Counted from the whole stretch's first letter, positions 3,001 through 57,905 are shown. The stretch: 62,270 bases of DNA, filler included, from Hausera hauseri (GCA_046269625.1; 11 parts of 11 records of this genome joined end to end with filler, not necessarily neighbours in it), one strand, 5' to 3'. Numbers and translations: made by a program. Notes: generated by a model not told the origin, from the sequence alone.

Positions 3001-5610
3001 TCGTTGATTGCTTTATCATTTTTATCACTGGATAATGTTTTTGACGTATCTTTATCTTCAACTGTCTTTACATAACCTAGTGCTTGATTTTTATACTTGC
3101 ATTTAACACAGGATCTCGAACAGCAGGGAGATTCAGTTTTACCTTTGTCACTTTCTTCTGCATTAGTATCTCTAGCAATCTGCTTAATTTTATGTGAACC
3201 TTCATACGTTTCTTTATCTTTCGTACATGTGCTAGAACAAAAGTAACAATCGCTTGCACAACTTTTCTTATTCTTAGATCTAATTACACCCTTAGTAACA
3301 CGGTCGTTATCATCTGCATTTGAAGGTGAAGTTAACTGATCTACCTTGTTCTGGTCCTCTATTCTATCGATGGATGCTAGAGTACATAGTTTACAACTAC
3401 CCCTCTTGATGTCTTTGTTTTGTTTGTCTGTTTGAGAAAGTGGTGACGTATCTGAATAAAATGTGCAGCAAATGCATTGTATGATTGACAACAAATGCAA
3501 GGAGGCAATGCCATTTTATTTTTTGAAGTTTCTCATAGACTTCAGATAATGCTTCTACTTTGGTATGTTCTTTATGACTATACAATATAGCATCTTTTTG
3601 TTTCTCTGCTTCTTCATGTTGTTTCTCAATTTCCAGATGTTGTTCGTCTGCTTCCAGCTTCTTTGATTCAATCTGGATGACTAATTCTTTCTTATGAATG
3701 TCTTGCCCTTCGTCAGATTGATTTCGTTTGAATAAAGTTGAACGGTATTCAGGGCAACACATACAATGTAATTGATTACAACATGACTTACATCTTGGTT
3801 CTTCAACTCTGTCTTCCGATTTTAAATTCGATGCATAACTGGACACAACATTTCCTTCAAGTTTCATATCTGAACCTTTTATATCGGATGATTTCGTTTC
3901 AGTTTTTGTACGATCCAAATTAGGATCGGGCGATTTGGAACCATCTTCTAAATAGATACTGTCAGGAGTAGAGTCAGGTTTACCATCGAATGACGTTTTT
4001 CTGTTAACATCTGAATAACATCTATAACACAAACGATTGCAACATTTACTGGATGTTTGTTTTTGATGAAGTGCCAATTCATGAGGTCGATGTCGATTTT
4101 CGTAGGAAGAATCAAATTCCGGCACACGGTGACTAGCTTGCTTTGATAAAGATTGATCTTCCTTATCTAAAGATAGTATTCGTTTTGAAGGCTCATGCCA
4201 AGACTCCAATTTTGAATCAGTGCTGGATGTTAATTTTTGATTATCAACACTTTGCTTTTCTCGAGTTCTATCATCTACTTTTGCACACATTTTGCAACAA
4301 GTCTTTTTATCTCCTTTGCTTTTAATAAGGTCTTCATTATCTACTTTCGAAACACCGGATCCGTGTTCGATTAACTTTTTTACTTTTGCATCTTTTCTGA
4401 TTGATGCTTCATTGTACTTTTTTGAGTCTTCATCAACAGGTTTTCTACCCGTTTTATCAGGCATTTGTAAATTGATTTTATTTGTATAAGGCATCATATT
4501 TTGTCGCGGGTTTTGCAGCAGATATTCCATTTGCTGCAAATAGAAACTTTTCGTTTATCACCAATTTTAAAAAATTTCGGTTTCAATATCTGCAAATTCT
4601 TCATTCGGTTGATCAATTTTCTTCATTTTTAATTCTGATAGTTGGAATCGTAATGCAGCATTTGCATGGACGGTCATACGTTTTCTGGTCTTTACCACTT
4701 TGTAATAACTCTTCATGACATTTTTCACAAAGAATTGGATTCCGGTTTGTAAGCAAGAGATCTGTTTCAGATTTACGTTTTCGTTGTTCTGCGATTTCAC
4801 GTTTTTCATTTGGTACATTAACTACCTTTAGTGGCTTTGGTTGTTTACTTGACAACTGTTTTTGAGTTGCCAAATTTCTAGATACAAATGGTTTTGTTGC
4901 ATATTTCGGTTTTGGTTTTTGACGCAATGGCCCTAATTTTTCATGTCGAATTTTACCGACGTTTAATTTCGCTGGACTCGATATAACAGGAATTTTACTT
5001 TGCTTGATTGGCTTGATTACCTTTTCGTCAGTTGATTCGTATTCCTTGTTTTCAATATTTGATAATATCAACTGATGGCATTTTTCACAATATACGTTCA
5101 CATATTTTATTTGCTTTTCTTTAATAACCATCACAGTTTTTGGTGATTCTTTTGAATCCCCATTCAATTTATCAAGCTTCGATTTGTCATCTGACTGGTC
5201 GGGAATGTTTCGTTTAGCCGCACCTTTCGTAACACTTTTTGCACATGTGTCTTTAGATCTCGGGCTAACTGAAATAATTGACCTGACTAAAGAATCCGGA
5301 CGTTTTGGTGGGCTTTCGTTTTTCTTTGGTGCTCTTTTACAGATTTCATAACGTTTTTTCTTATTTGTTTCACTTTCTTTTTCATTAATATAAACATGAT
5401 ATTTATATAATTTTTCAACAACAGTCATGGAATTATCAAGCATTACTTTTTTTACATCCATATTCAAACTTTTGAAAAATTCAACAATAACTTCATTTAT
5501 TTGATCGTGAATATCCAAGCAATTGATTACGTAACGAATTGAAAGAACCTGTCGTAGATCATTCATTGTGATTAAATTCCAAATGTTGTTTTCAAACACC
5601 TGATTGAAAA
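1..5610 (-). pseudogene. Large K/E/D/Q-rich protein with ~20 CxxCC motifs, split by several frameshifts (ORFs 4613-5599, 3397-4539, 474-3500, 248-502); open at both ends
   Basis: The CxxCC motif continues across frame changes (PPCICCQS then IQCICCTFYSD near 3480-3520; CKCCIT...ICSKWNICCK near 4510-4670). Composition is the same throughout. No domain recognised. Confidence 0.6.
735..1935 (-). repeat. Coding tandem repeat, 7 units with a 171-bp (57-aa) period, each with a (Q/E)PCSxCCRT-type motif
   Basis: The anchor T(A/G)CAAC recurs at 881, 1052, 1223, 1394, 1565, 1736 and 1907, an exact 171-bp spacing. Confidence 0.9.
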
Positions 5611-5710: not shown

Positions 5711-5721
5711 GCATAAGGTTA

Positions 5722-6198
5722 ATGATAATGAATGATGTAAGGATTATCTTAACAGACGAAAATGCCTTTGTACCGAGACGTGTTACAGCAAACAGTGCAG
5801 GCTACCATGTGTTTTCCAATGTCAATACGACAATTTCGGACAACACAATCAAATGCATAACGACTGGGATTCGATTGGTGATTCCATCCGGTTACTACGG
5901 CCAACTTATATCGAAAAGTGAACAGGCAGAGATCGGACTGACGGTTATGGGCAGCGGCGGTGTAATTAATTCAGACTTTCGTCGTGAAATTAAGGTGTTG
6001 CTGGAAAACCAATCCGGGGAACCGTATGCTTTTTCGAAAGACAGTGCAATACCACAAATCGTTTTTCTTCGCTGTGAAGAGGTGGAATTCAGTGTAATGT
6101 CACAGGAACAATGGAGATTGTTTTGCGTCAATGAAACGACACAAAATGAACGCAAAGAATTTGGCTTTGGTGATATGGACAAAATCATCTATGTTTAA
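5722..6198 (+). CDS. Trimeric dUTPase-family protein with degenerate motifs, probably Polinton/virus-associated
   Basis: All five motifs are recognisable but altered: SAGYH, KSE, GVINSDFRREI, IPQ and ERKEFGFG. Confidence 0.85.
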   Translation: MIMNDVRIILTDENAFVPRRVTANSAGYHVFSNVNTTISDNTIKCITTGIRLVIPSGYYGQLISKSEQAEIGLTVMGSGGVINSDFRREIKVLLENQSGEPYAFSKDSAIPQIVFLRCEEVEFSVMSQEQWRLFCVNETTQNERKEFGFGDMDKIIYV

Positions 6199-6719
6199 TG
6201 ATTGTGATAATAATAATATTACTTAGTTGTTTTGCTTGTTTTATAAACAAAAAATGATTTTGTACCTGATAAGCAATGGCGACAGGATTTATAGATATTG
6301 AAGCAATCCAAGATGATAGTGCCTGGTACCTGATAAAGAAATTATGCATTATGAACGTCGTAACATGTTCGAACCGCTTGTGCACATATTCAAGCCCGGT
6401 ATTGTGTGGAAAGACCTGACGGAAAAAGCGGAAATTACAAATGGATTTCTCTTTCGACATCGTCTTGGACTTCATTGGTGCGAAGGCAATTCAAGGTCAG
6501 TTAAAAAGCTATAACATTTTGGCCGTAGAAATATCCATTCCTGATACTGAAGCCGACCTTTATTCACTATTGTTTCTCGTAACATTAAGTTAAATAGATA
6601 AATTAAATGATAATAAAACAAAAGGCAAAACAACGAATAATATACATTATTTATACAAAACAAACAGATTACAATGAATTGTAACAGTAATTTGATCTGT
6701 CTGCACCGAATTCATGCGT

Positions 6720-9700
6720 GCGTGTTTTATTCCAAACACTAATGCCCGTACGCTCAACTCTTATTTCGCCCCACCCACTTACGCTTATAATCATTGCATG
6801 ATAAAGCGACTTTTGTATTTGTCGCCATGTACAGTTGGTGCTCAATCGATCGGATGATCGTTTGTGACACAACAGCCTTTGATTGTCCTTCTTCATCTTC
6901 ATAGATACGGCGATAATCACCGTGGTTTATCTCCGTCTGAACCAAATGAACTCCTTTGGTGCACATTTTCGGTCCACCGTCAGTTAAAAGATTATAACAT
7001 TTTGGCTGTAGAAATATCCATTCTCAATACTGAATCAAAGCTTCACTTTCATCCTTAAAGCAGACGATTTTGTTGGTGATCGCGCTGCTGTACAACGGAT
7101 GATCTGGTGGATAGTTCGACGTGTCCAGTAATCCGTCTGACTGCATTTGCTACAGTAGCTGTTCGCGATTGACTTTTTTCAGCCGCAAGAAAAAACTGTC
7201 TGTATCACCGGCAATTATACTAATGTCACAGCCGTCAAACATTTGCCATTAACGTGCCAAATCGCGATACTGTAGCTCATACATCCGCAACGTACTCAGG
7301 TCCAATACCACTTGTCCGATGTAACTTGGCCGGTCCAGAACGACTTCTTCTCTGTTTAACAGCACCGCAGCCAGTCCATCGGCAATGTGCATTGACCGCC
7401 GAAACTACGCCTTACTTGTGTACGTGACCAACCGCTTTTCGATATTGCATAGGCGTACATTGAGCCGCTTTTTCAAATTCTCCACTGCTTTTCCGTACAC
7501 AGAATTGTTTTTCAGCTTGTAGTAATCCTTTTCGAACTTTGTATAAGTTGCGGCTTGTTTCTCCGAATTTCCATCTATGTACGACTTGAATATTGGAGCC
7601 TGAGTAAATCGGATTGCACGATGCAGCTGTGTGACGCGTACACCGAGGTGCATGTAAAACTTTAGCAGACGCCAATAAACTATGTAATTCAACTTTGGTT
7701 CATGCGTCATGAGAAGTTTCTTCGCTTTTGAGCCTGGCGGACATTGGTTAAATGGTGTGACCGTAAATCGTCCAAAACGTCATTCAGCTTATCTGGTACC
7801 ACGAAATCGACCTCCATCAGGATTCGTACTGAGCCTTCCATGTCTGCTCGTGGCAGGTTGACTATTATGTCGTCCAGATCTTGTCTGTCGACAACCCATT
7901 CGAATAAACCGTACGGCAAGGGTTGTGAAAGCGCCCAGCTATACAGGTTATTGATATCAATATACAGCAGTGATGTGGTATCGGTAGCAATGACCTGATG
8001 CTTGTTGACAAATGTCATGCCGCCGCGAATGCCAACATCAAACAGCCGGTACATTTCCGGGTCTTGCAGCAGCTCAATGCCTCGATCCAGTGACATTAGA
8101 GCTGACGCCCAACTCATTTCCGGTATGGAATAAAAGTTGAGCGCTCCAGCTTATCTTCAGCCAACGCTTTCACTGGAAACGCTTGGAACACATCAGCTAA
8201 TAAGCACACGTCCAGTTTAAGATACTGGAGAATGTAATCCAACATATTTCTATAGCCGAGTTCTGTCCAACACCTCTGTGCTTTCCGGTATTCATCCTCT
8301 GCGATACCTGTCCATTGCGGCGGTAATTCCTCTGCTGTCTGGAGTCGCTCATATGATGTTGCAATGTCATATGAAAATATGCCTTTGCTGCGTGCAATAT
8401 GTGCAGGGAACTGCGTCAGTGCTATTGGCACATCTGGCAAGGCATTTACCAGCTTGGTCAATGATTCATTGAGAAATATCAATGAATCAATGAAGCGTAC
8501 CTGGAACCGGTTTATACGAGCAAACAGTGACAGGTATTTCTCCATCGTAGTCGGAATTATGGATAGTTCCCAGTGAGGAAATCCGTTTATTGTCCATTTC
8601 AAAATATGGTGACAATCATAACCCCTGCACTTATGAAATACCACCGGTAAGAATGGCCGCACACCTTGCGAATTGCATGAATTACATTCTGCTCCGAGAA
8701 ATCCACCAGTAAAATAATCGTAATTCGGTACGAGCTGTTCCAGTGCGTCAAGCGGCAATATTTTGTGGCACAGGTAACATTCATTTGTGACTGCAAACGT
8801 CAGGCGTTCATCTTCATCTGTTTACGTCAAGGGTTTATTGCTATTTCTACTGTACCAGGGTGCGATTTCAGTTTCCACTATGGTTTGCAACTGTTGCAAG
8901 AAATCGCGTACACAATTCCATCCGTGGGAAACATAATATTGAGGTTGATCTGCGGCTTTTATTTGGACAACCAACATACCGACGGCGATTGGAACATGTT
9001 TTTGTTCATATATGCTGTGCCGTGGTAAAATAGCTTCGATATCGGCATATATTACATATGCCGGACTGTCTGTTTTTGATCAATCAGTGAACCTGAGTTC
9101 CTGTTTTACAGGCATGACATACATTGTGTTCCTGACGAATTTTGTCTGCACCGAGTCACATGTTTCTCCCATGTTGTTTCCAACCTAAATCCATGAAGAC
9201 ATACAGGACACCATTTACACTGTATTCGTTTTTGGAGGAAATGGTCATGCTCCATGTTTAGTAGTCTGCCCAGATTTTTCACTGAAACGTAATGGTACTT
9301 TTCTTTTTGTTCCAGTAGCAACAAATTTACTAAGCGGTCATTTGGGTTCCGACTACGATAAATTTTATCCACATGAGGATTTTTGTAAATTTCTTCACCC
9401 CCGGTATTTCTACGATTATGTTGTAGCGGAACGCGTTGATTGCTAGTATCCGATTATGCCGTTCAAAAGCCGGGATGGATTTCAGTTTCAAATCCAATTC
9501 GGAAAAATATTTCTGAGATGCACTATGTCTGTCCACTTCGTCATATCTCAGTACCGCCAGAATACTGTAAAGAAAACAGTATTCATCGTTAGTATTTTTT
9601 TTACATTCACTACCACCAGAGACTGCTTCAGAGCTGCAGGTGTCGGTATGTATGATCGTCCAGACAAATATATTATGTCACTCGATTTTGTTATGATAAA

Positions 9701-10200
9701 GCCGAGGGTGACAATTCGTATAAATCGTCATTCACTGCCCTTTTTCGTGTAGTTGGCAATTTTCTCGAGCTTTTCGCCTATATCGACAGTAAAATCTTCG
9801 GCATATAGTACAGCTCGATGTGACAGGTACCATTGTTTCCTGTCACCTTCAACGTTTTTAAATTCTGCAAGTGCATAATATTGCACTTTGCAGTGATGTT
9901 GGAATTTCGCCAATTCTGATTTCAACCGGTTGCGGACATCTTGCAGAACATGTCTCAATTGCGTTGTTGTTAATGTTTTCGTCGACATCTGTTCAGATCG
10001 TACTTGACATTAATGTCGGGTTCCTGTTGTATCTGTTCCTCTTGTTGTTGCTGTTCCTGCTGACCCTGCTGTTGCTCTTCTTCTTCTTGCAGCTCGGCAC
10101 TGGTTCTGATGTATTTGTCCAGACTTGTTGATGCCTTACGTTTCCTACTGGTTGTTTTTGTTGTTGTTGAAGGGATTCTGCTGATTTTTGTTGATTCCAT
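6720..10200 (-). mobile_element. Polinton/Maverick (adintovirus-like) protein-primed DNA polymerase B, fragmented by stops and frameshifts
   Basis: N-terminal GSE*...SYIPTP...NVKNTNDEYCFLYSILA. Endonuclease VII-like and exonuclease region (TGGFLGAECNSCN, PVVFH..RGYDCH, RFIDSL, YLKLDVCLLADVF). Polymerase motifs GIRGG, YIDINNLY, KLKNNSVYGK and GDTDS. C-terminal TKGV...IRSIEHQLY..KVALSCNDYKR. Confidence 0.9.
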
Positions 10201-10230
10201 TAATATTAATTCTATCGACTACCGCTGAAA

Positions 10231-10617
10231 CTAGTTTAAGTGGTCCTGGTGCTCATTGTAAAATTGTTCATAGTTGATTTCATCAACTATTGAACAACCG
10301 GGAAGAATATAGACCCGTTTACCGTGCACCATTGTGGCGCCATAGTATTGCTCCATTGCACTATGGTAACTATCAATGTCGTGCACTGTACTTGTACAGT
10401 ACCGTGGGTACACGGGGCAATGCACTAACATCATCTTCTTCGACAGTGTAAACGGTCCGAGATGATGCTTGTGCATCTCATAAAAATTGGGGTACGGACA
10501 TTGGACTGAGATATTACACGTTGGACACAGATATGTGTCAATTCCAACGTTGTAATATTTCGCTATCTCTTGATGGCACTGTTCTGCTTCCTCACGTATG
10601 CGAGAGACGCAGTACAT
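10231..10617 (-). CDS. Unknown 128-aa Cys/His/Tyr-rich protein upstream of and co-oriented with PolB
   Basis: Intact ATG-to-stop ORF with CPTC and HCP..C; GC content similar to the PolB region. Confidence 0.45.
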   Translation of the reverse strand: MYCVSRIREEAEQCHQEIAKYYNVGIDTYLCPTCNISVQCPYPNFYEMHKHHLGPFTLSKKMMLVHCPVYPRYCTSTVHDIDSYHSAMEQYYGATMVHGKRVYILPGCSIVDEINYEQFYNEHQDHLN

Positions 10618-10893
10618 AGGATATTGTGAACATTTCTAAATTTAAACAAATTAAAGTAAATGTTAACTCTAAATTGAAAACATTAAATACAATTATATAA
10701 TAATTTGATATACACTAACTTATTTCTTTTACGCAAGTATAAACATATCAGCCATATTACATATTAAAACTTAAATGGAAGAGTACATTGAGANNNNNNN
10801 NNNNNNNNNNNNNNNNNNNNNNNNNNNNNNNNNNNNNTTAATTAATTAANNNNNNNNNNNNNNNNNNNNNNNNNNNNNNNNNNNNNNNNNNNN

Positions 10894-11490
10894 CTTACGC
10901 ATAGGGACGGTCTACCGTTCTCGGATAGACAGATTGTGCCTTACTTATAAAAGATATTTTAACGTTATTGCGGGTACCTGCGTGCGGTCTCGTGCGTAAT
11001 TTACTCAGACTCTAGTCTTAACTATATATATTACACTCGAATTTTAAAACTTAATGTGTTGCCAAACCACTTTTAAAAAGCGGTGAAAAACTATATATAA
11101 TTTTAACGGACAATCACAAACCCTTTATTAGCAATAACAAATTACCAAGAAAAACGGATTACAGAGTACGAATATCAATAAGAACCACGAAGTCTGTCTT
11201 TCAAAAATTGGAGAGCCAATCTCTTTTAATCTCCTGACGTTTCTCACTTGATAAAGTCACTTCTTTTCTGTTCTTCTCAATTTTCCAAATACTTTTACAC
11301 TCGTACGATTCTACAAGCTGCTTCAATTATTCTATTTTATTTCCCCTTTTTACAATAAATTTTCTATATACCACTATTACCACGTTCTAATAACTGTTAC
11401 CACATATTCTATGTACATAAAATTTCCTTCAGTGTTTTATTATTATATACATTAATTTTCCTTGCAGTATTTTATTACTCAATTTCCTCT
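10894..11490 (-). mobile_element. Probable 3' UTR/LTR of the minus-strand Gypsy element
   Basis: A purine tract (GGGAGAGAGGAAA on minus, ~11483-11495) follows the last ORF. The region is non-coding with a TATA-like motif near 10945. No second LTR is available for comparison. Confidence 0.35.
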
Positions 11491-11519
11491 CTCCCACACT
11501 GTTTATGTCGATTTAATTA

Positions 11520-12650
11520 TTAATTCAGGCCATCTGACGCACTGGCGGTCGACATAACACTGTCAGTATTTTCTAAAATTTCTCCCTGAACGTCACTCTC
11601 GGATGAGCCCATTGCGTCAGAAGAGGTGACGTTATAACGTGGCAGTCTCAGGAGGCCGAGTCGTCGACTTAAACCCGTTTCTGAATTTGTATCAGTCTGA
11701 TTGCTTTGGGAATTTGTTTCTAATTTGTAGCTGTAATGTGGCTTTATACGGACCACTCGGGTGTAGCTACCATTGGAAAAATATTTCAGATCAGTTGCTT
11801 GGGCTCTGCACACCGGACATATGGTCTTGCCATTATCTAATGTCCATTTCTCTAAGCAGTCCCGACAATATTTGTGTCGACAATCTAAATTGCTCAGAAT
11901 TACATATCCTTGTTTAAGGTCTGCTTCTCATACGGGAAACTCGTTCTCCTCTTTTTCCCATTTTTCATCATATAAGTCTACTCGTGTCGTGAGTTCAAGG
12001 GGTTCAAACACAAGACCGTCTTCGTCTTGGTACAAATAGCCATATATCCTTTTGTGCCGGGTGTTTATGAAGCTTTTCTTTGGATCACAACCTACTGGTA
12101 CGAATATCCAATCGCCTATAGTGTCTCGATCTAGGTAGGGAATCTCAACGGTTATCTGATACCTTTGATATTGTCTCTTTAGCAACGCTTTCACAGTTTT
12201 GTCTACCGGTACTATCAATTTACCATTCGTTTTGATTGGAAGATCGGTATAATATATTTCCCTATTTTCGGATTTTCCCAAATATATGTATTCTCATAAA
12301 CGTCTCGTACTGGTACTACTTTGACAAAAAACATGGCCTCTAATCTTCTGATGACTATAATATTCGGTGGTTACTAACATTTTGGGTTGACCCTCAGCCA
12401 TGGCAAAATGTATGTTATCGTGGGAGTCTTTCTTTCGTAATACATTTATTTCAGTTATTTGTTGTTTGACTCCATCGGTGGACTTCATATATCTTTGTCT
12501 GGAGAAATTTTGAACGATTGCAGACGTCGACGGCGTCTCTCCGGTCTGCATGAATACGGGTTCTGTCTCTGCTTTTGCAGTTTTGTTTATCTTTTTGAAA
12601 AGATTCATAGAGGGATATTTTCGTTTTGTTCTTAGACATTGTGGTTTCAT
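11520..12650 (-). pseudogene. ~376-codon accessory ORF with a RING-HC finger near its C-terminus and two in-frame TGA stops, in the Gypsy 3' region
   Basis: ORFs 12294-12650, 11928-12281 and 11520-11813 share one frame. The read-through gives EFPV*EADL...LDCRHKYCRDCLEKW...ICPVCR. Confidence 0.75.
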
Positions 12651-12654
12651 TTTT

Positions 12655-15413
12655 TTCTGCCTGGGAATCGATTTACGCTGTCAACTGGACAAAATGATTT
12701 AGTCAATCAATACAAGTCAAAATATATTTATTGTTTTTGTGGGTCGTAGGAAGCGGTCCTATGATATCCATTAACATGGCTTGCATAGGTCTGTCTGGTA
12801 CGGCAATTGATTTTAACTCTGCCATATAGTTCTTTGTCTTCTTCTGTTTAGTAGCACATACTTCGCAAGCATTTACCCTATTCTTCACATCAATGTAGAT
12901 ACTGGGCCAAAAGTATTTATTCAGTATTCTTTCTAGCGTCTTTTCCACGTGTCCGGCTAAGTATGAGTCATGTTCCGCCATTAAAACTTCGGCACGTAAG
13001 TTCTTTGGCATGACTATTAATTTTCTTCCTTTTCGTTCGTAATACAAAACGTCTTCACTGTTCTGGTCATTCAAGACACAGTAGCTAGTTCCGTGCCTGT
13101 GTAAATTTTTCTTCAATTGTCGCCCTTTTGGTAGTCTTTTTTACAAATTCTATAATCTGCTGAATGATTCTATCCTTTCGTTGTTCTGTTGCAATTTTGA
13201 ACTCTTTATCTAGCGTTAAGATGCATTGGCGTTTTATTATTTCTTCAAGCTGATTTTTCTTCGTTATAGTGATTGCACTTGTTTTGGTCGTTAATCTTGA
13301 TAGTGCCTCGGCATCTACATGTTTATTTCCTGGTTTACACTGGAATTCCATATTGCATCTAGAGATTTCTTCGATCCATTTGTTAAGTCTACGTAAACGT
13401 TGAAGTGTCGAAGCGTTTCTTTTACGGCTAGAGTTTCTAATTCAGTAACGAAATAATTTTTCTCGGCCTTCTTCAAGGAACAACCTCCATAAGCAATTGG
13501 GTGTTCTAATTCTTCGTCTTCTCTTTTCTGTGCTAATTCATATACAATGCCTTCTTTGCTGGCATATGTCTTGATTATAAAGGGTAAGTTAAAATCTGGG
13601 TACCGTAAAACAGGTTCGCTTGTTAATATCGTCTTCATCTCGTCGAAAGCTTTTTGTTCGACGTCTGTCCATTTCCATTTAATCCCTTTTTTAAGTATAC
13701 GATATAAGGGTGCATTAATTTTCGAATTATCTGGCACATAAGTGGCGTAATACCCGCAGAGTCCTAGCCAGTGCTTAACTCCTGGTTTTGTGTTTCCATG
13801 AAATCTGATATTTTGTTTAATAACAATTTATCTGGTTTCAATCCTCCTTCTCCAACTATATGACCAAGGTAGGATACGGCGTTTTGAGCCCATTTGCATT
13901 TCTTTGGATTTAACTTTAATCCAGCTTGTTCCAGTCTCATTAATGTGTTTTCAATATCCTTTAAGTGTTCCTCTTCGGTCCTTGACGCTATCATCATGTC
14001 ATCTAAGTACGCAAAAACATGATCCAATCCCATTAACATTTTGTTCATCATTCTTGTAAATATGGCTGGCCCGGTTGTAATACCGAACGGCATGACGTTA
14101 AATTCATAAACACCATTGTGCGTTTTAAATGCTCTCTTATAACGGTCTTCGTCCTCGATTTCTACTTGCCAATATCCGTATTGTAAATCCAGAGTAGTAA
14201 ACCATTTTGCTCCTGAGAGTCTATCTAAAGCCTCTTTCACTGACGGTAATGGGAAGGAATCTTTCATCACAAGATTATTTAAGGCTCTATAGTCAATACA
14301 AAATCGATGTTTCGTGGTACCTTTCTTCTTAACCATGACGATTGGCGAATACCAAGAACTGTAGCTGGGCCTAATTATATCGGCCTTGAGCATTTTCTCG
14401 ACTTCTTTTGTTACCTCAGGCCTTAATGAATGTGGCAGAGGATAGCATTTCGGCATCTTATGATCTTCAAGGTCTATTTCTTCATTCGAACCCGGCTTTT
14501 TCTTAAGAGGAATAGTCAGCTTTAGTGCTTTTGTCCTACCAATATCTTCGTCGTCTTTAGCGATGATTGATTTATAGCGGCACAAAAACTCATAAAATCG
14601 AGAATAAGATTCGGGGGAGAACTTAGTTTTGACATGAGGTGGAAATTCTGCATACTTGTAAGGCTTCTCTTCAATACTTATCGACGACACTCTATACGTA
14701 TCTCTTAGAGTAGTATAAGCATGGAGTTTTACGTGTTACGGTGCGTTGTTTGCTATCCTAACCGGTATACGGCCGGAGTGTACTCTTGTTAGTACATTAC
14801 TGAGCGTTATATTTGGATTCAATGTCTCCTTTGGTTCAAAATATACCGGTTGATCGTCATCCTGTTAAACTTGAGCATAAATTATTATCTCCGTTCTCGG
14901 TGGAATGTTTTCATCAACTGATATCCACACTTTTCCGAACTCCCTATCCTTAGCGTTTCTTATACCTTTATTTGGTCTGATCTCTATTAATTTTCCTGTT
15001 TGCAAATCGATTGCTATATTTGGTAACCTTTTCAATAGATCACATCCTAAGACGACGTTGTCGGTTAATTATTCCATAACTGCAAATTCGTGACGAAAAT
15101 TTTTTCCAACTATTTGGACTTCTCGGTTCCATTTAAACATCGGTTTCGACATTTAATCAAAAGCTCCTGTGCTTCCTGGGTCTTTTGTAGATGGTGGAAA
15201 TAATTGTCCTCTTAGCGTTTGAGGTATTGAATCGTTTTTAATGTAAGACATTTCAGACCCTGTATCGAATAAAGCATAAACTTCCCAGTCTCCAATAATG
15301 ATTTTGGCGAAGGGTATTCCTTCTATTACTGTTCCGAAACAATTTGATGTATCCTTTGAGCATTTTGCCGCCAATATCTTGTGTCCGTTAATTCGGACTT
15401 CTGGGAAGGACAC
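12655..15413 (-). mobile_element. Ty3/Gypsy pol (family A): protease, RT, RNase H and N-terminal integrase; decayed, integrase core deleted
   Basis: ALFDTGSE; FCIDYRALN...LDLQYGYWQ...MPFG...YLDD; PIAYGG..ELETLA; HDSYLAGH...CEVC; DIIGPLP. Homology to the sister copy ends after DSQAEK. Confidence 0.93.
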
Positions 15414-15439
15414 TATATGTTCTGCCAGTTGTCTTAACT

Positions 15440-16022
15440 CTCCGTGTCAGCGAGAAAATGGGTCTTAAATTCTGAGAGATTACGAGAAATCATACCGGAA
15501 GATGAAAGATCAGCATGTTACCAGATTGTCGATGAGGAAACGAAGACAAAAACTCTAGGTATGAGGTGGAACACTAACAGTGATGTATTCTCCTTCGATA
15601 AAAGAGTCCAATTGGAGGAAATTACTACAAAGAGAAAATTCTTGAGCTCAGTAGCTCGATTATTTGATCCATTAGGGTTTCTTAGTAGTTACTTAATGAA
15701 AGGAAAATTGATCATTCAAGAAATGTGGATGCATGGCGCAGATTGGGACGAACAACTTCCAGACCACTTAATCAAGCAAGCAAAATAATGGATATCGGAA
15801 CAACAAGATTTAGAGAAGATTAGAATAAAACGTGTCTTAGTAGCTGATCAGTCACAATACGAAATACAAATATTCTGCGATGCGTCCAAAGATGCTTATG
15901 GGTCAGTTGCTTACCTGGTCACCATGGTAAATAAAAGAAACAGCAACATAATAGTAGCAAAAAGTAAAATATCACCCACAAAAGTGGTATCAGTACCACG
16001 GTTGGAGTTATTAGCTGCTGTG
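15440..16022 (+). mobile_element. Bel/Pao retrotransposon RT-connection/RNase H fragment abutting the Gypsy element
   Basis: RKWVLNS...KTLGMRW...TKRKFLSSVARLFDPLG...DWDEQLP...IFCDASKDAYG...AKSKISP..SVPRLELLAAV. Confidence 0.92.
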
Positions 16023-30878: not shown

Positions 30879-30979
30879 NNNNNNNNNNNNNNNNNNNNNN
30901 NNNNNNNNNNNNNNNNNNNNNNTTAATTAATTAANNNNNNNNNNNNNNNNNNNNNNNNNNNNNNNNNNNNNNNNNNNNA

Positions 30980-32300
30980 TTAGCTTTTTTACGAAGTGGG
31001 AAGTTCAATGAAACGAAAGGAAAAATATATCAAGAAGAGATATCAAAAAGCAGATTAGATCGAGTATCAGATACAGTGGAGACACCAACTATTGTTTATT
31101 CAGCAGATCCAAGTGAAGGAATGCGATTTAAAATAGAAGGTGATACGAAGAGATGAAATCAAATTGTATATCGTACAAATTATAAAGGAATATTTTTATC
31201 TACGACTAAGATAACTGAAGCACAACGAAACATATATAAGTCGGAAGTCAATCCACATTTGTACTTCGACAATAAGATCGATTTTATTCACCACTTCCAG
31301 CAAGAAAACATTTACGTTATGTATCGAGAAATAATACTGAATGATTGTAAATTAAATAGAAAAATAATTAGAAATCAGATATATCTATCAGCAATTACTG
31401 ACTGTATAATGAAAGATCTAGCTGAATCACCCAATGCGGAAGGAAAGTTCGCACGAACAGTGGGTGAAATGCTCATAACCTTCGAGTGTACAAAGGTGGC
31501 TGTCAAACTAAGATCAACTACCGATTGTATGATGGAGCTACCTGTTTGGTACAAAGAAAAACCACGTTTCTTACAACCAATTACACGGATATTATTGGAT
31601 CCTGCAGAAAAACCATATGTACATCAAAATTGTACATACACTATGTCGCCAGCATTCCGACTAAGTGATAACTTATGGATGAGGATGCCAAAGAAGGAAC
31701 AGATTACACCACCTCGTAGAATTAGTCTGATCAATCTAAAAACGAAACAAACGCATAAACCATTAACGGATTTAGTAAAAATGGGAGTGTATTCCGAACA
31801 AGATATGGAAAATCATAGAAGAATGATGATGTTTCCTCAACAAAGACAAAACGTTTTAACGGAAATGGAAATGAAAATGTTAGCTGATCACACTGGAAAG
31901 GCTAACTGGGAAAATATAATGGGGCCGGAGTATGCTAAACGCATTGCTAAAGATATATTCGCGACCGCATGGGGATGGTACATGTGGTTTGGTCAATTTG
32001 ATTCTGGATGGCTAGGATTTTATTACATTTTCGCTTTTATAGAAGAAATTTTGACCATGGTAACCAAAGGGTATGGTATTAAGCAAGCCGCTGGTTGCAC
32101 TTGGAAAATTATCTATGCACTAATCCCATCCATAGCTAGTTGCTTCTTGATAAAAAAGAATGCTGAATGGAAACAGAAAAATAAAAATAGGGATGAAGAT
32201 AATAACAACTATGATGAGAATAAACCTCCAGTAGAGAAGATAAAATCTAAACCAGTAGAGGATACAAAAAATTCATGGAGCTTAATGACTGCTAGAAGTA
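30980..32300 (+). CDS. Chuvirus-like (gB/class III) envelope glycoprotein, C-terminal portion with membrane-proximal and TM segments; 5'-truncated by the gap, one internal TGA
   Basis: YFDNKID...LNDCKLNRKI..NQ; GKFARTVGEML..FEC.KV.V.LR.TTDC..ELPV.Y....FLQP.TRIL; GVYSEQDM..HRR.MMFP; W.WFGQF..GWLG.YYIF followed by hydrophobic helices. Confidence 0.75.
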
Positions 32301-32479
32301 AGAAACGAAGAACCTTACTTTCAGATATTCCTAAAATGCAAAAATGGAACGAATACCCCATGGAACAATCACACTTTATGTCTTTTAATGAATATATAGA
32401 CATACACTGTTCAAGTGATGACGACAATTATGATCCAAAACACGTAAAACTGATGTTTTACCCGTCAGCACCAAAAGAT

Positions 32480-35400
32480 GCTTTAATAGCTATCATAGAA
32501 GGAGGTAAAATAATTCCAAAAACAGTAATTTAAATAGATGGTTATTCCATTACTGCAATAATCGATACTGGAGCATCGGCTTCAATGATTTCACGCAAAC
32601 AATTGCCGGACCAAGTAAAGAAAAAGTTACAAAAGCCAACGGAAAACATTACGAATGTTGGAGCATTTGGAACTAGAATACAAGTAAAATATTTGATTAA
32701 ATGCGAGACAAAAGTCCTCAATCAAAAATTTGAGCAGGAATTCAGAATAGCTGATGAATTGGTGGCCGAAGCCATACTTGGTTGTGATGAGCTAACAAAA
32801 TTAAAAGATATGTGTATAAATTTGAAGACTCAACAAATCCAACAATATCGAAAAATAAAGACTGAGAAAAAGGATACCGTATCTATCAAGGAGGATGTCA
32901 TAATAACAGCTAGAGCGGAAGTAGTATTAAAGGCACTAGTAGAAAGTAGGGATGAAGAGGATGTTTATTTTGAACCAAACGCAACCTTTCTGGATAAGAA
33001 TGAGCTATGGTTAGCCAATACAACTGATAATATTCAAGAACATCAATTGATTGTTCGATTGGCTAATGTTTCAAATAAACCAAAATTATTAAGAAAAGGA
33101 ACTAGAATTGCTTATGCATATATGTAGTAAAAGATATAGCTAATAATGCAACAGAAGATATTATTTCCACTGTTCAGGAATTGTCTGATTTTATGGAAAG
33201 ACAACAATGTAAACCACAAATAAAGAGTGGAATGCAATTGGAAGATGAATCGGTGAGTAAATTGAAAAGTCACCTAAATAAGAACAAAATGACGAAACTT
33301 ATTAAAACTCCTATTAACTGGAACGACTATGATTTGTTTGGTAAGAACAGTATGTTGACAGATGCGGAGAAAGTAGGCATAGAAAAAATATTACAACAAT
33401 ATAAGGATACCTTCGCAATAGACGAATACAACATGGGTATAATACCTGTTATTACACATGAGATCAAACTGAAAGCTGGAATGGAAACCCCTATTAAAAC
33501 GAGACCCTATCGACTTAATTATGACAAACGAGAAAAGGCCAAAGAAATAATAGCCGAGATGAAAGAACATGATATAATTAGACCAAGTAACTCGCCATGG
33601 GCGGCACCTATAGTGATGGTACAAAAGAAAGACGGACCCATTAGAATGTGTGTAGACTATCGCGCCCTGAATGAAGTAACAGTGGACAACACGTATCCAC
33701 TACCGAGAATTGATGAGATATTGGATAAGTTAAAGGACAAGATGTTATTTACTACATTGTATTTACAGAAAGGTTTTTGGCAAATAGAAGTACAGGAAGA
33801 AGATAAACAGAAAACTGCTTTTGTAACCGCGGATTGACATTACGAATTTAACTGAATGTCATTTTGAATGAAGAACGCTCCAGCAACCTTCCAGACGGCT
33901 ATGGACATAATTATTATGGATGCTCCACACATAATGTGTTATGTTGATGACGTTATAATTGCCTCAACCAACTATAAACAGCATAAGGAACACCTAAAAT
34001 ATATGCTGGAGAGATGTGCACTCCTAGGAATTAAAATTAGTTTAAAGAAATGTTGCTTTGCCCAAACCAAAGTTGCCTTTCTGGGTCTTACAGTAAGTAG
34101 AGAAGACATTAGTCCACAGATTGGAAAAATCAATAAAATTCAAGACCTTCCAGTCCCAAAAACAGTTAGAGGAGTTCGAAAATTTCTTGGTCTTACGGGG
34201 TACTATCGGAAAGTTGTTAAGGACTATCAACAAATAGCTTCTCCTCTACACTGGCTATTACAGGAGAATTCAAAACTTGTATGGACTCAAGAATGCCAAA
34301 AAGCTTACCAACAGCTAAAGTATAACTTATTGGCTCCACCGATATTAGCATATCCTAATATGTCAAAACCATATTTCTTAGCAACGGATGCCAGCAAAGT
34401 TGGAATTGGAGTTGTCTTATCACAAAAGGATGACCAAGGACAAGAACATCCAATATCGTACGGAGGAAGAAAATTGAGAAAACATGAGTGAAATTATTCA
34501 ACAATCGAAAGAGAATTAATTGCGATTGTATATGCATTAGAACAATATGGCCAATATTTATCGGAGACCAAACCGATTGTTATTTATACTGACCATAAAC
34601 CACTACAATGGCTGAAAAATCAAAAATCCGAATAGTCGTATAATGAAATGGACCATGTTATTACAACTCTACGATTTAAAGTTCGAGTATAAAACCGGTA
34701 AGGCTAATGCAAATGCCGATTACATGTCAAGAATACCCGAAGATGTAGAACAAAAAGAGGAGGGAATAATAAAGGATAAACCGGGTGTCATAGAAGCCAT
34801 CTGGAGTATAACAGAGCAAGAAAAATCGTTGCAAAACAACAAGATAATGAGCAAATAAAACAGATTAAAGAATACCTCCATAAGAAAATGATACCAAAAG
34901 ATATTGATCTTCATACTCATTTAGTAAAATTTTCTGAAAACTATAAAACAAAAGATGGCATACTCTACTATAACTATAAAGGGAAATTAGTTATTGTTGT
35001 CCCCCAAGACATGAAGTTATTACTAACCCAATATCATGATGGTATGTTGGGTGGACACCAATCAAGGTAACGAACTCTAGGCAGACTTAAGAGAAAATAT
35101 TATTGGTACAACATGTCCAAGGACGTAGAAGAATGGTGCAAAAGTTGCCCTATCTGTCACAAAGAAAAATACAGGAACAAAAATCAAGGTCCCTCTTAAA
35201 CCAGTGGAATGCCCACCAGCCCCAATGGAATTCACAGCAATGGAATTCCTAGGACCTCTGCCTATGACGATAAATGGAAACAAGTACATGCTAGTATTTG
35301 TTGACTTATTTTCCAGATGGCCAGTCGTAGTCCCAATACCGGATCAAAAGGCTCAAACGATCGCACAAGCATTCGTCGAAGAAATTGTGTTTAACTACGG

Positions 35401-35480
35401 AGCACCTACTAAATTATTAACTGATCAAGCTCCCAATTTTACAGGAGAAGTAATGGCGGAGATCTCAAAAATTTTTCAAA
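32480..35480 (+). mobile_element. Ty3/Gypsy pol (family C): PR, dUTPase-like spacer, RT, RNase H and IN; decayed
   Basis: IIDTGASAS; SPWAAPIVMV..RMCVDYRALN; YVDD; TDASKVGIG; ERELIA; HDGMLGGH; FLGPLP..VDLFSRW..TDQ. Confidence 0.95.
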
Positions 35481-35619
35481 NNNNNNNNNNNNNNNNNNNN
35501 NNNNNNNNNNNNNNNNNNNNNNNNTTAATTAATTAANNNNNNNNNNNNNNNNNNNNNNNNNNNNNNNNNNNNNNNNNNNNACGGTCATACCCAAAATTGG
35601 TGTCAGAAGTTGTCGTCGC

Positions 35620-53730: not shown

Positions 53731-56220
53731 AAGAAGAAAGGAACTACAAAACATCGGTTTTGTATAGATTATCGGGCATTAAACACGCTGATGATGAAAG
53801 ACTCGTTCCCCTACCGTCAGTAAAGGAAGCTTTAGACAGACTATCAGGAGAAAAATGGTTTACTACTCTCGACTTACAATCGGGATACTGGAAAGTGGAA
53901 ATAAAAGAAGAAGATCGATATAAGACAGCGTTCAAAACACACGATGGCGTATACGAATTTAGCGTTATGCCTTTCGGCATCACCACAGGACCAGCTACTT
54001 TTACTAGAATAATGAATAAGATGCTCATGTAACTCGATCATGCATTCGCGTACTTACACGACGTGATGATAAAATTAAAAATGGAGGAGGAACACTTAAA
54101 GGATATTGAATATACCCTCATGCGACTAGAAGAAGCAGGTTTGAAATTAAATCCGAAGAAATGTAAATGGGCCCAGAACGCAGTATCGTACCTTGGACAT
54201 ATAGTTGGAGAAGGAGAATCAAAACCAGATAAATCCTTGCTATATAAAATATCCGATTGGATAGAACCGCGAAATCAAAAGGAGTTAAGATATTGGTTAG
54301 GTTTATGTGGGTATTATGCCACTTACGTACCAGGCAGTTCAAAAATTAATATATTATATCGTCTACTCAAAAAGAAAACTAAATGGAGATGGACAGAAGT
54401 GGAACAAAAAGCATTCGACGAAATGAAGAAAATTTTGACAAGCGAACTAGTCTTAAGATATCCAGATTTTAACCTACCATTCATCATTAAAACCTATGCG
54501 TGTAAAGAAAGCACAGGATACGAATTAACTCAGAAGCGAGAAGATGAAGAACTAAAAAACAAAATAGCCTATGGGGGACGCATGTTAAAGAAAGCAGAAA
54601 AGAAATATTCGGTTACCGAATTAGAAACGTTAGCCGTTAAGGAAGCACTACGACATTTCATTGTCTATGTTTATAGACAAAGGATTATTATAATAACCGA
54701 CCACAAGGCAGTTGCGACACTGAAAGGACGAGCTATTAATTTGACATGTAAACTAAACCGTCGGATTGAGGAAATCTCATGATATAACATTGAATTCCAA
54801 TACAAACCGGGAAATAAACATGTTGACGCCGACTTACTATCAAGGCTTAAGACAAAAACGAATGCAATTACTATAGCAAAAAAGACGCAACTCGGACAAT
54901 TAATCGAACAACAAGGAACTCTAATAATGGATAAGACAATTAGAATTACAGCCGAGAAAGCTAAAGATAAAGTTATCCAGAAAATTCTTAAATTCGCACA
55001 AAACGGCGAAATGCCCAAAGGACGACAATTGAAAAAGCACCTGCAGAAACAAGGGAATAAATATCACACCTCAAACCAGGATAATATCCTGAATTACGAA
55101 AGAAAGGGACGAAGATTAATACTTCTTCCAAAAGAATTGCGCACCGAAGTATTCATGGCCGAACATGATTCATATTTAGCCGGATATATGTCCTGGAAGA
55201 AGTCATTGGAAAGAATATTGAATAAATACTACTGGCCAAGTATCTATATTGACGTAAAGAATTGGGTAGGAGCGTGCGAAGTTTGCGCAACGAAACAAAA
55301 CAAGACGAAAGGCTACGTAGCAGAACTAAAACCAATAAACGTATCAGATAGACCTATGCAGGCCATGTATATGGATATAGTAGGACCGTTACCTAAAATT
55401 CACAAAAACAACAGATATATTCTAACATGCGTGGATCAATTGACACATTTTGTCAAATTGATGGCATTATTTGATCAAAAAGCGGAAACATTAGCCGACG
55501 CAGTGGTAAGAAAAATTATCTGCACATACGGACCACCGGAACAGATCCTAACAGACAGAGGAAAAACTTCACAAGCGAATTATTTGAAAAAATTACCAAG
55601 ATATTTAAAATCGAACGTTTAACTACTACCGCGTATCATCCCCAATGTAATGGAATGGTCAAACGTATGAACGCAACAGTCATTCGGATATTATCAACAG
55701 TAGTGGCAAAAGACCATAAGGATTGGGACGAATTCCTAGAAGGAACACAATTCGCAATCAATACGACACCACATCCAGCGACAAGGTTTACACCGTTCCT
55801 TATAATGTATGGACGGGAAGCAATCTTACTCGCAGATCTAGGCATGACACCTTACGAAAAGAACCTCGAGGATCTCAAGCAAAATTTTGCCGAAGTCATG
55901 CAGACAAGACTGCGAAAATGTTTGGAGGTCGCAAAAACCTTATCACTTGAATATCAGGAACAAATAAAGAAACAATATGATAAAAAGACTAAGCCTCATG
56001 ATCTGGAGAAGGGAAATTTGGTTTATATACATTACCAGTCGCGAAGAAAGGCACATCCTTAAAATTAACACGTACCGGTAGAGGAACTTATAAAATCATT
56101 CGCACTACGCCAACTACAGTATATATCAATAAAAACGGGAAGGAAGAAGTCGTGTCAGTACAAAGAGTCGTCAAAACCGAAATACAACCTAATAAACGTT
56201 AAAATTTACGTCAGCGTGAG
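53731..56220 (+). mobile_element. Ty3/Gypsy pol (family A, sister of 12655-15413): RT, RNase H and IN
   Basis: Peptides are near-identical to the minus-strand copy (PLPSVKEALDRLSG.KWFTTLDLQ; HDSYLAG..CEVC). IN core DIVGP..VDQLT..TDRG..YHPQCNG. Confidence 0.95.
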
Positions 56221-57676
56221 TCAAAGACTTCCTCGATAATTGCCAGACCGACATCGTACGTGCAAATAGTTTTAGCATTAACATTAGTTGCTTCTTGTAT
56301 TCCGAGAGCACAAACTAAATGGTGGCACGACGGATCTACACAAAAAATTGTATACGGAGCGCAGAAAAGTGGATCCAAACCAGAAGTTAATAAAACGGAA
56401 AAGATGCCAACATTAGAAGAAAACTAAAGACAAGAAAGAATTACGTTGTTACAATCAGTCAAAATTCATTATTATTCGCCGAACTCCACATGCGTTGGAT
56501 TTAAAGTACAGAGACCACACCACAATGTTGGAAGACTTCAAATTGCCCTAGATGATATAATGACAAAAGAAACAAGGAATTGTGATTTCAAGCCTGGAGA
56601 GCATACGCAATGTTGCAGTACGGCTTTCTGACATACTTATAACATTACCTATCGACTGTATTCATCGAAATCATCTACAATATACGAAATAGAACCACAA
56701 TTTCAATTAATTATCCCTGCTTGGAACAAGCATCATGGAATAAAACCCAACGAAATGCTTCAATCCGTCGACCCAGTAAAACGGATGCTAGAAGAAAATA
56801 TCGTCGGTATAACTGAAAATACAAAGGACAACTGTATTCAAATAAACACAAAAGGACGATTAATTAACGGCCGAGTAATTACGGTCCAGTTCCTAAAAGA
56901 AAACATACCAGTTTACAACCAACAGTACTGTCAAATCGACGTCGAGCAACCAAAAAAAATGCTGCAAGTTATCCGGAAAATATAAATATAGAATTCAGAT
57001 GGACTTATATGAAGTCAGACCAAACCGGTCGAGTATTTATCTAGGAAATTACCAATTTAGAAACCCAATTGGACAGAATTTGCTTGGAATAACAAGTAGA
57101 ATTACAACTATGAAAACAAAGTCTACCAATCCTGCATTCGCTAGAATCATTCTAATGAATAGATTGCCTCAAAAGGATCTAGAAATAATTCCGGTAAAAT
57201 ACTGGACACAAACGCGCGAAATAACTTTTGTTGTGGAAAAAGCATTTAATTACGATGTAAGGATTAACTGTGGAACAATATACCACAATCAAAAAGTAAC
57301 GCTGGCTAAGGGTAGCCATCAGGTCAAATGTACATACTTGAAACCTAAAACGGATAACATTGTACAAGTAGGTGCAGAAAATAAACAAAATAGAACATTC
57401 GCGGTACGAACCTTAAATGAAATTGTCTCAACGAAATCATTAACTGATGACGAAACGGAAGATGAGGTTACAACTACTGCTAAAATGAAAAATTTAACCG
57501 AACAGACAACCTTGTCGTTAATATCGATTATTGGAACATCAATATTTGCTCTCATAATTCTAATTGCGTTTTGTCGATTGATTACCAAAAACTGTTGCAT
57601 TAAGCGTCAGAAAATCACTGAGAGGGAATTAAGGGTGATGGTACCACAGGATGAAATTAATGATGGAACAACCTGA
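56221..57676 (+). pseudogene. env-position ORF: predicted type I membrane protein in frame with the IN C-terminus, with two stops and one A8 frameshift
   Basis: Signal-like VQIVLALTLVASCIP after KR*NLRQR, a Cys-containing ectodomain, and TM LSLISIIGTSIFALIILIAFC followed by a basic CC tail. Confidence 0.65.
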
Positions 57677-57905
57677 CAACTACAGATCGGGTTATTCCAC
57701 CGTCAAACAAAGAATTGGTTCAAATTTAGAACAATACTTTGTTTTAGGATTGACCCTTATTTTGTATTTTCTTTCAGAATGGTAAGTACGAATAGCCGAC
57801 CTAGGNNNNNNNNNNNNNNNNNNNNNNNNNNNNNNNNNNNNNNNNNNNNTTAATTAATTAANNNNNNNNNNNNNNNNNNNNNNNNNNNNNNNNNNNNNNN
57901 NNNNN

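Follow-up and report, generated by a model that had tools for sequence, protein, structure and literature searches.

A decayed copy of a Burro-like GAG-ENV-POL Ty3/Gypsy retroelement with a chuvirus/gB-type glycoprotein in frame before its protease

The DNA analysed here, a window of 62,270 nucleotides (nt), consists of 11 contigs joined by artificial N-spacers, and one of these contigs holds the subject of this report, a retroelement whose glycoprotein gene (env) lies upstream of pol. The whole contig, 4,502 bases long, spans 30979-35480 and is truncated at both ends. The spacer at its start (30879..30978) leaves gag, the signal peptide and the 5' long terminal repeat (LTR) outside the window, and the spacer at its end (35481..35580) does the same for the rest of the integrase and the 3' LTR. 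All features of the element lie on the plus strand. Glycoprotein, transmembrane (TM) segment, linker, retropepsin and a dUTPase-like spacer share the frame that starts at 30980 and ends at 33124; reverse transcriptase (RT), RNase H as well as integrase follow outside it. The Pfam families occur in the order RVP, RVT_1, RT_RNaseH_2/RT_RNaseH and rve, that is protease, RT, RNase H and integrase, which bears out the earlier assignment of pol to Ty3/Gypsy. BEL/Pao identity was ruled out, the Pao-type Pfam family being absent at E<=0.1, and no second env copy was found in the 62,270-nt window. We put at about 0.85 the probability that the element is a decayed copy of a high-copy Burro-like GAG-ENV-POL Ty3/Gypsy retroelement, likely of a flatworm host, in which a chuvirus/gB-type glycoprotein stands in frame directly before the protease and a dUTPase-like domain, with RT, RNase H and integrase downstream.

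The glycoprotein is cut by the contig start, leaving the C-terminal part of the ectodomain at 30980..31969, with a stop at 31154-31156. Its open reading frame (ORF), open over 31157-32530 (458 amino acids, aa), matches PF24664 (Monjiviricetes_fusion) at E 1.8e-55. In the 30980 frame the GE..C..ELPV pattern lies at 31463-31546 and the GVYS motif at 31784, and the cysteines are nearly invariant across 128 env sequences. The N-terminal part of the fusogen, where fusion-loop domain I and the signal peptide would be expected, lies beyond the contig start in the window and is carried according to Pfam by a relative, P0001. An AlphaFold model of 31157-32170, built on an alignment of 128 sequences (predicted local distance difference test 85, predicted template modelling score 0.51), has a long central helix (residues 33-80), a beta-rich domain (strands over 97-183) and a helical arm running into the TM segment (helices 214-243 and 257-312). 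When this model was compared with the viral models of BFVD using Foldseek, 26 matches were obtained at E<=0.001, the best being a chuvirus-type G (E 8e-13), with herpes gB models among them (E 8e-5 to 4e-4). Both the PF24664 match and the chuvirus-type G match bear out the chuvirus-like class III fusogen named in the first-pass annotation. That annotation had expected Foldseek to return chuvirus G or herpes simplex virus (HSV) gB; this was so for chuvirus G and for modelled gB, whereas solved gB structures matched only weakly. As modelled, the window glycoprotein has the architecture of a class III fusogen (gB/chuvirus G), with a long central helix, a beta-rich crown domain, a C-terminal arm and a TM anchor.

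Downstream of the ectodomain, a membrane-proximal segment rich in Trp and Gly leads into a TM helix and then a short hydrophobic helix at 32096-32155, which likely lies on the membrane; the whole segment (31970..32155) is recognised by hydropathy and by model helices 257-312 and 316-335. The same two-segment hydrophobic pattern is found in the 12 relatives shown. The main TM segment of the window copy is weakly hydrophobic (Kyte-Doolittle 1.34 versus 1.67-2.43 in 14 long env-protease relatives). A charged linker, likely the cytosolic tail, follows at 32156..32512. Its 120 codons are open in the 30980 frame, as in none of 10,000 shuffles, and the other two frames hold 13 and 18 stops. At 32459-32473 a YP overlaps a PSAP. 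Across the env-protease linkers YP occurs in 12 of 13 (4.2 expected) and YPx[LI] in 7 of 13 (0.7 expected), counts to be read in the light of a motif picked post hoc and of 13 related sequences. Such tail motifs could be ALIX/Tsg101 late-domain (budding) motifs, or could form part of a protease cut site.

The linker runs into the retropepsin at 32513..32840 (PF00077, E 2e-9), the one protease domain that the window element holds. An in-frame TAA at 32531-32533 sits inside its first strand and the DTG at 32564 follows in the same frame; the fold matches retroviral proteases (Z 10.9, root-mean-square deviation (rmsd) 1.8 over 82). The spacer of about 90 residues between protease and RT (32867..33124, model residues 112-197) had no Pfam match, but a fold search did find one, to dUTPases (Foldseek E 2e-4; VIA Z 9.4-9.8, rmsd 2.4-2.9 over 82-85). 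RT with its connection occupies 33484..34281 in the next frame (PF00078), with YVDD at 33940 and three stops. RNase H lies at 34282..34730 (PF17919, PF17917) and has one stop and a frame change near 34625. The integrase zinc finger and core, at 34942..35480, were recognised by PF00665 (E 7.5e-12) and by tblastn of relatives; they contain one stop and a frame change near 35160 and are truncated by the contig end. The RT-RNase H region is 41-49% identical to nine stored relatives.

In total the copy carries seven stops (31154, 32531, 33835, 33853, 33865, 34489 and 35068), of which 31154 lies in env, and four frame changes, near 33120 (where the RT frame shift falls within about 33106-33127), 34625, 34770 and 35160. 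An RT catalytic-site residue at 33760-33762, kept in 8/8 relatives, is substituted. Because of the seven stops, the four frame changes and this substitution, the window copy is dead and cannot make the polyprotein. It is thus more broken than the first-pass annotation had it. The single frame described as running from the contig edge into RT does join glycoprotein, TM segment, linker and protease, but it is interrupted at 31154-31156 and ends at 33125-33130, with RT in the next frame. Similarly, the TAA, described as the only break at the junction and as a sign of decay, does lie in the first protease strand and its origin in decay is supported by the depth of related contigs (below), but the env stop and the frame change before RT had been missed.

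We next consider the relatives of the element. A protein search over 1.84 billion representatives gave 689 matches. Among the 18 with E<=1e-30, nine have env followed by a protease within a single protein, eight stop inside env or just where it ends, and one is a stand-alone 654-aa glycoprotein. In this count the protease of P0010 is partial and was seen only with a custom profile. A protease is carried by 14/150 among the matches listed. Taking the relatives' chains as unspliced ORF calls, env, protease, RT and RNase H are found in one chain in eight proteins (P0002, P0007, P0012, P0027, P0068, P0152, P0156 and P0159). P0068 begins gag-like, has a zinc knuckle and extends in a single chain as far as the integrase, without the two cargo domains (ubiquitin-like and Bcl-2-like), and a CCHC knuckle precedes env in six relatives (P0001, P0002, P0008, P0010, P0015 and P0068). 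P0002 aligns in one piece to contig positions 30980-33112, from env through the protease and spacer. The closest relative among the matches listed, P0001, is 74% identical over 116 aa spanning the env stop, and joins in one chain a gag-like start, a CCHC knuckle (E 2.5e-4), ubiquitin-like (weak) and Bcl-2-like domains, a signal-like segment and the N-terminus of env. The Bcl-2-like domain stands before env in five relatives, including P0001 (leave-one-out E 4e-12 to 8e-4); it matches Bcl-xL at E 5e-4, and Pfam Bcl-2 was seen in four of the five, below the cut-off, while Atlas gave no usable match for this region. A word search returned no near-length homolog and one longer homolog, and viral_contigs gave no match to the single protein.

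An env tree of 62 rows, made by a quick method after 6 short rows had been excluded, places the window in a 22-row clade with SH-aLRT 100 to which every one of the 14 rows with a fused protease belongs; the other 40 rows, mostly stand-alone glycoproteins, lie outside it. The open one-chain relatives (n=8) bear out the proposal that env in frame before pol is a family trait, and the gag that was anticipated upstream of env is present in relatives in the same ORF, as seen in the six chains with a knuckle, P0001 and P0068 among them.

Some further features of these relatives were recorded. Retropepsin domains number two to seven per chain in P0003, P0004, P0005, P0007, P0008, P0015, P0152 and P0156, most in tandem between env and RT and all with DTG. 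All six long env-bearing chains continue past the integrase into a unit of signal-like segment, ectodomain and hydrophobic anchor (P0002 2257-2557; P0007 2486-2740; P0027 2780-3195; P0152 4361-4729; P0156 2592-2901; P0159 2796-3983, two units). Four of these units share a Cys pair and an LxPxT motif, weakly (leave-one-out E 0.002-0.68), and for the post-integrase region of P0155 Atlas gave FN3 clusters at 0.88, a lead only. P0002 itself (NCBI HBK71150.1) is an animal-type gag-env-pol polyprotein listed as a hypothetical protein of a Flavobacteriaceae metagenome-assembled genome, and therefore likely reflects host contamination of the bin.

Other copies of the family allowed the junction stop to be evaluated. 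Two public runs from two studies contain the family, and the first run may be the source of the window; no RNA run was listed with it, which counts neither way. Contig pieces aligned at 80% likeness numbered 16,997 and 2,011, and in each run they covered every one of the 30 bins; their summed depth is no copy number. At 32532 and 32533 the depth differing from the window was 3345.6 and 3320.3 of 3358.9 in X1, and 149.7 of 149.7 in X2. From this near-total depth reading otherwise, about 99% of the summed related-contig depth in the two runs, it follows that the junction stop is private to the window copy, in agreement with its earlier attribution to decay. Related contigs also have indels at all four frame-change places, at a low share at 33124/33127, and in the second study a 763-nt contig spans the stretch from the TM region into the protease. 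The stop in env at 31154 was not among the variant rows listed.

The host of contig 30979-35480 is likely a flatworm, judging from its sequence motifs and from a ribosomal protein gene elsewhere in the window. The motifs GMRF and TNYKG of the window and YQES of P0001 have 11 occurrences in PMC13524379's supplementary file 2, every one of them within six Schmidtea errantivirus rows. An RPS14 (uS11) ORF on another contig (52496-52960, minus strand) groups with Macrostomum and neodermatan flatworms with support of 99/96, in a tree of 33 rows chosen from 120 matches. This ORF is intronless and on a long branch, and is possibly a processed copy.

Several observations weigh against reading the locus as a decayed Burro-like element of a flatworm with a class III fusogen. 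Against solved structures, herpes gB holds the top Foldseek ranks with no match below 0.001 (best E 0.018), and a profile search of the PDB gave herpes gB at E 0.017, consistent but weak. Coiled coils made up most of what a VIA search with the env model returned, and HSV gB 2gum (Z 6.0, with rmsd 4.7 over 153 residues) ranked level with coiled-coil rows. Because the solved gB matches are weak, the class III call draws on Pfam and the viral model library, to which solved gB adds weak, consistent support. Gag, signal peptide and LTRs are absent from the contig and are attributed to the element through P0001, with its 74% identity over 116 aa only, and the ubiquitin-like domain of that relative is weakly supported (Pfam E 0.031, leave-one-out E 0.24). 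An RT tree of 16 rows, without named references, places the window in a clade that contains env-bearing rows but also two other window elements in which no env was seen. The RPS14 hint comes from a different contig, possibly of a different organism, and the comparison with Burro is by description, named Burro sequences being absent from the alignments used here.

These data allow us to propose how an intact member of the family might work. The steps follow from general rules for membrane proteins; the domain order and the single frame are observed in the relatives. Gag would be made in the cytosol, after which an internal signal would thread env into the endoplasmic reticulum and signal peptidase would free env from Gag. 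The TM helix would stop transfer, leaving protease, RT, RNase H and integrase hanging on the cytosolic tail until cut free. In this scheme the second short helix would lie on the membrane without crossing it, since crossing would make Pol luminal and useless. Trimers of env would bring protease molecules together at the membrane, and there the protease would release itself and Pol by cleavage. Gag, Env and Pol would be produced in equal numbers, with no frameshift involved. Particles carrying env would then bud and would fuse with other cells. That the lineage is infectious, and that Pol is tethered to the tail until proteolysis, as the first-pass annotation put it, we infer rather than observe.

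The element might instead be an intracellular or short-range transposon that makes no infectious particles, in which env serves for membrane anchoring or neighbour-cell transfer, or in which Gag-Pol comes from a spliced RNA that skips env. We regard this as possible but doubtful. The passages of the literature covered contain no reports of particles or infection, and PMC13524379 calls the mechanism of transmission and entry of gB-type elements unknown. As a matter of general knowledge, a one-to-one output of Gag and Pol would also be unusual for retroviruses. On the other side, env has kept both its length and the arrangement of its cysteines across relatives that have diverged widely, and the late-domain-like YPx[LI] recurs in the tails well above expectation, post hoc and among related sequences as that count is. 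A one-off event, in which a chuvirus G gene was captured as an endogenous viral element by chance in frame before an ordinary Gypsy pol, or in which the contig is chimeric, would accord with a fragmented assembly, a highly repeated family and top structural matches that are viral G. Many independent proteins carry the same fusion, however, and the one open chain in relatives refutes both capture and chimera; depth in all 30 bins of both runs, the bridging contig of the second study and the grouping of env with retroelement envs, apart from stand-alone G, point the same way, making this explanation very improbable. Scarcely credible, too, is a programmed stop with read-through that sets a low Pol:Env ratio. 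Retroelements are generally known to use read-through for such ratios and the TAA is near the junction, but it falls within the protease's first strand, a different reading accounts for about 99% of the depth at that site, six other stops are present in the copy and the relatives are open. Chimera, chance capture and programmed read-through were accordingly rejected on the relatives' open chains, the depth and the position of the TAA.

If the Burro-like reading is extended, the compact Burro-like clade might be a lineage of enveloped retroviruses that encode, within a single polyprotein, an entry machinery of two glycoproteins. Ahead of Pol, the gB-type fusogen would be paired with an FN3-like type I membrane protein after the integrase as its attachment partner, YPxL/PSAP tail motifs would provide for budding, in retroviruses the task of Gag, and the host cell would be kept alive by a tail-anchored Bcl-2-like protein. 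We offer this proposal, which is built on the relatives and not on contig 30979-35480, as speculative and rather unlikely. Neither a second membrane protein after the integrase nor YPxL-like tail motifs were found in the parts of the literature covered, whose figures might show the post-integrase membrane unit or the additional protease domains. The post-integrase protein and the tail motifs would serve as handles on whether single-polyprotein elements form infectious particles and on how the chain is cut.

Elsewhere in the window, a broken Gypsy element at 53731-57805 (plus strand) has RT, RNase H and integrase, followed by a signal-like segment near 56250, a region rich in Cys and a TM segment near 57520-57580, and shows a weak match (E 0.028) to P0156's post-integrase unit. 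The RT of this element shares 80% identity with that of the element at 10894-16022 (minus strand), which has no env match before its protease. The region 5711-10793, with a dUTPase (5713-6195, plus strand) and a fragment of a protein-primed family B DNA polymerase (8117-8821, minus strand), is likely a Polinton/Maverick piece. Three long ORFs (1013, 385 and 331 aa) at 477-5608 (minus strand) have no clear Pfam family and no match to the stored polyproteins.

Several known systems bear comparison with the element at 30979-35480. The G proteins of Chuviridae/Monjiviricetes, endogenous copies included, share the Pfam family and fold of the window env; they differ in being stand-alone proteins of about 650 aa, 20-29% identical, in a separate env-tree clade and with no protease fusion. 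BEL/Pao elements with chuvirus G were reportedly described by Dezordi et al. in 2020. A continuous gag-env-pro-pol ORF is said to have been described in nematode endogenous retroviruses (NERV) by Sacco et al. in 2022 (J Gen Virol). NERV resembles our element in having env before pol in a Metaviridae element and differs in its nematode hosts; in the supplement to PMC13524379, as far as it was covered, no nematode row showed the env motifs of the window, and the RPS14 hint points to flatworms.

In the parts of PMC13524379 (Chary & Hayashi) covered, GAG-ENV-POL gB-type Gypsy elements are reported in Nematoda, Bryozoa and Platyhelminthes, with Sacco et al. 2022 cited for the nematode elements. The Platyhelminthes_C1a errantiviruses among them, Smed_errantivirus_1-6, have the same gene order, gB-type env and env domain I-II motifs as the window element, but are listed as intact, in contrast to the broken window copy. 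The terms 'fused', 'polyprotein', 'single ORF', 'in-frame', 'Burro' and 'BCL' do not occur in the main text of that paper as covered. Planarian Burro/GYPSM1 was presented, in the portions of PMC6431247 (Arkhipova & Yushenova 2019) covered, as the first case of an env lying in frame between gag and pol. The novelty implied for an env-before-pol order is therefore not upheld, the layout having been described in both papers (from 2019 in PMC6431247); gene order adds little as a finding, and the window element is a decayed copy of this described Burro-like kind. As reported in those portions, Burro has in common with the window and its relatives a mononegavirus-type env in frame between gag and pol, and hence before the protease, and with the window a dUTPase-like domain between protease and RT. 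It shares with P0001 the Gag, CCHC knuckle and Bcl-2-like domain before env, together with a ubiquitin-like domain that is weakly supported in P0001, and further likenesses are a high copy number and decayed copies with stops and frameshifts, reported for Dugesia japonica. RNA of BURRO1 has been reported from planarian tissue (PMC8532177). Burro sensu stricto has an internal region of about 25 kb and an ORF of about 4,900 aa with MATH, BIR, Smc and ankyrin cargo (PMC6431247), whereas the window element is compact, like P0002, with one protease about 120 residues after env; P0152 (4,844 aa, ankyrin, seven protease domains) is nearer the giant type. Together these comparisons suggest that the window contributes what is likely a new flatworm host, in which a compact family is very abundant, and link the accounts of PMC6431247 and PMC13524379, as far as covered, by bringing the Schmidtea-type gB env and the Bcl-2-like and dUTPase-like domains together in one lineage.

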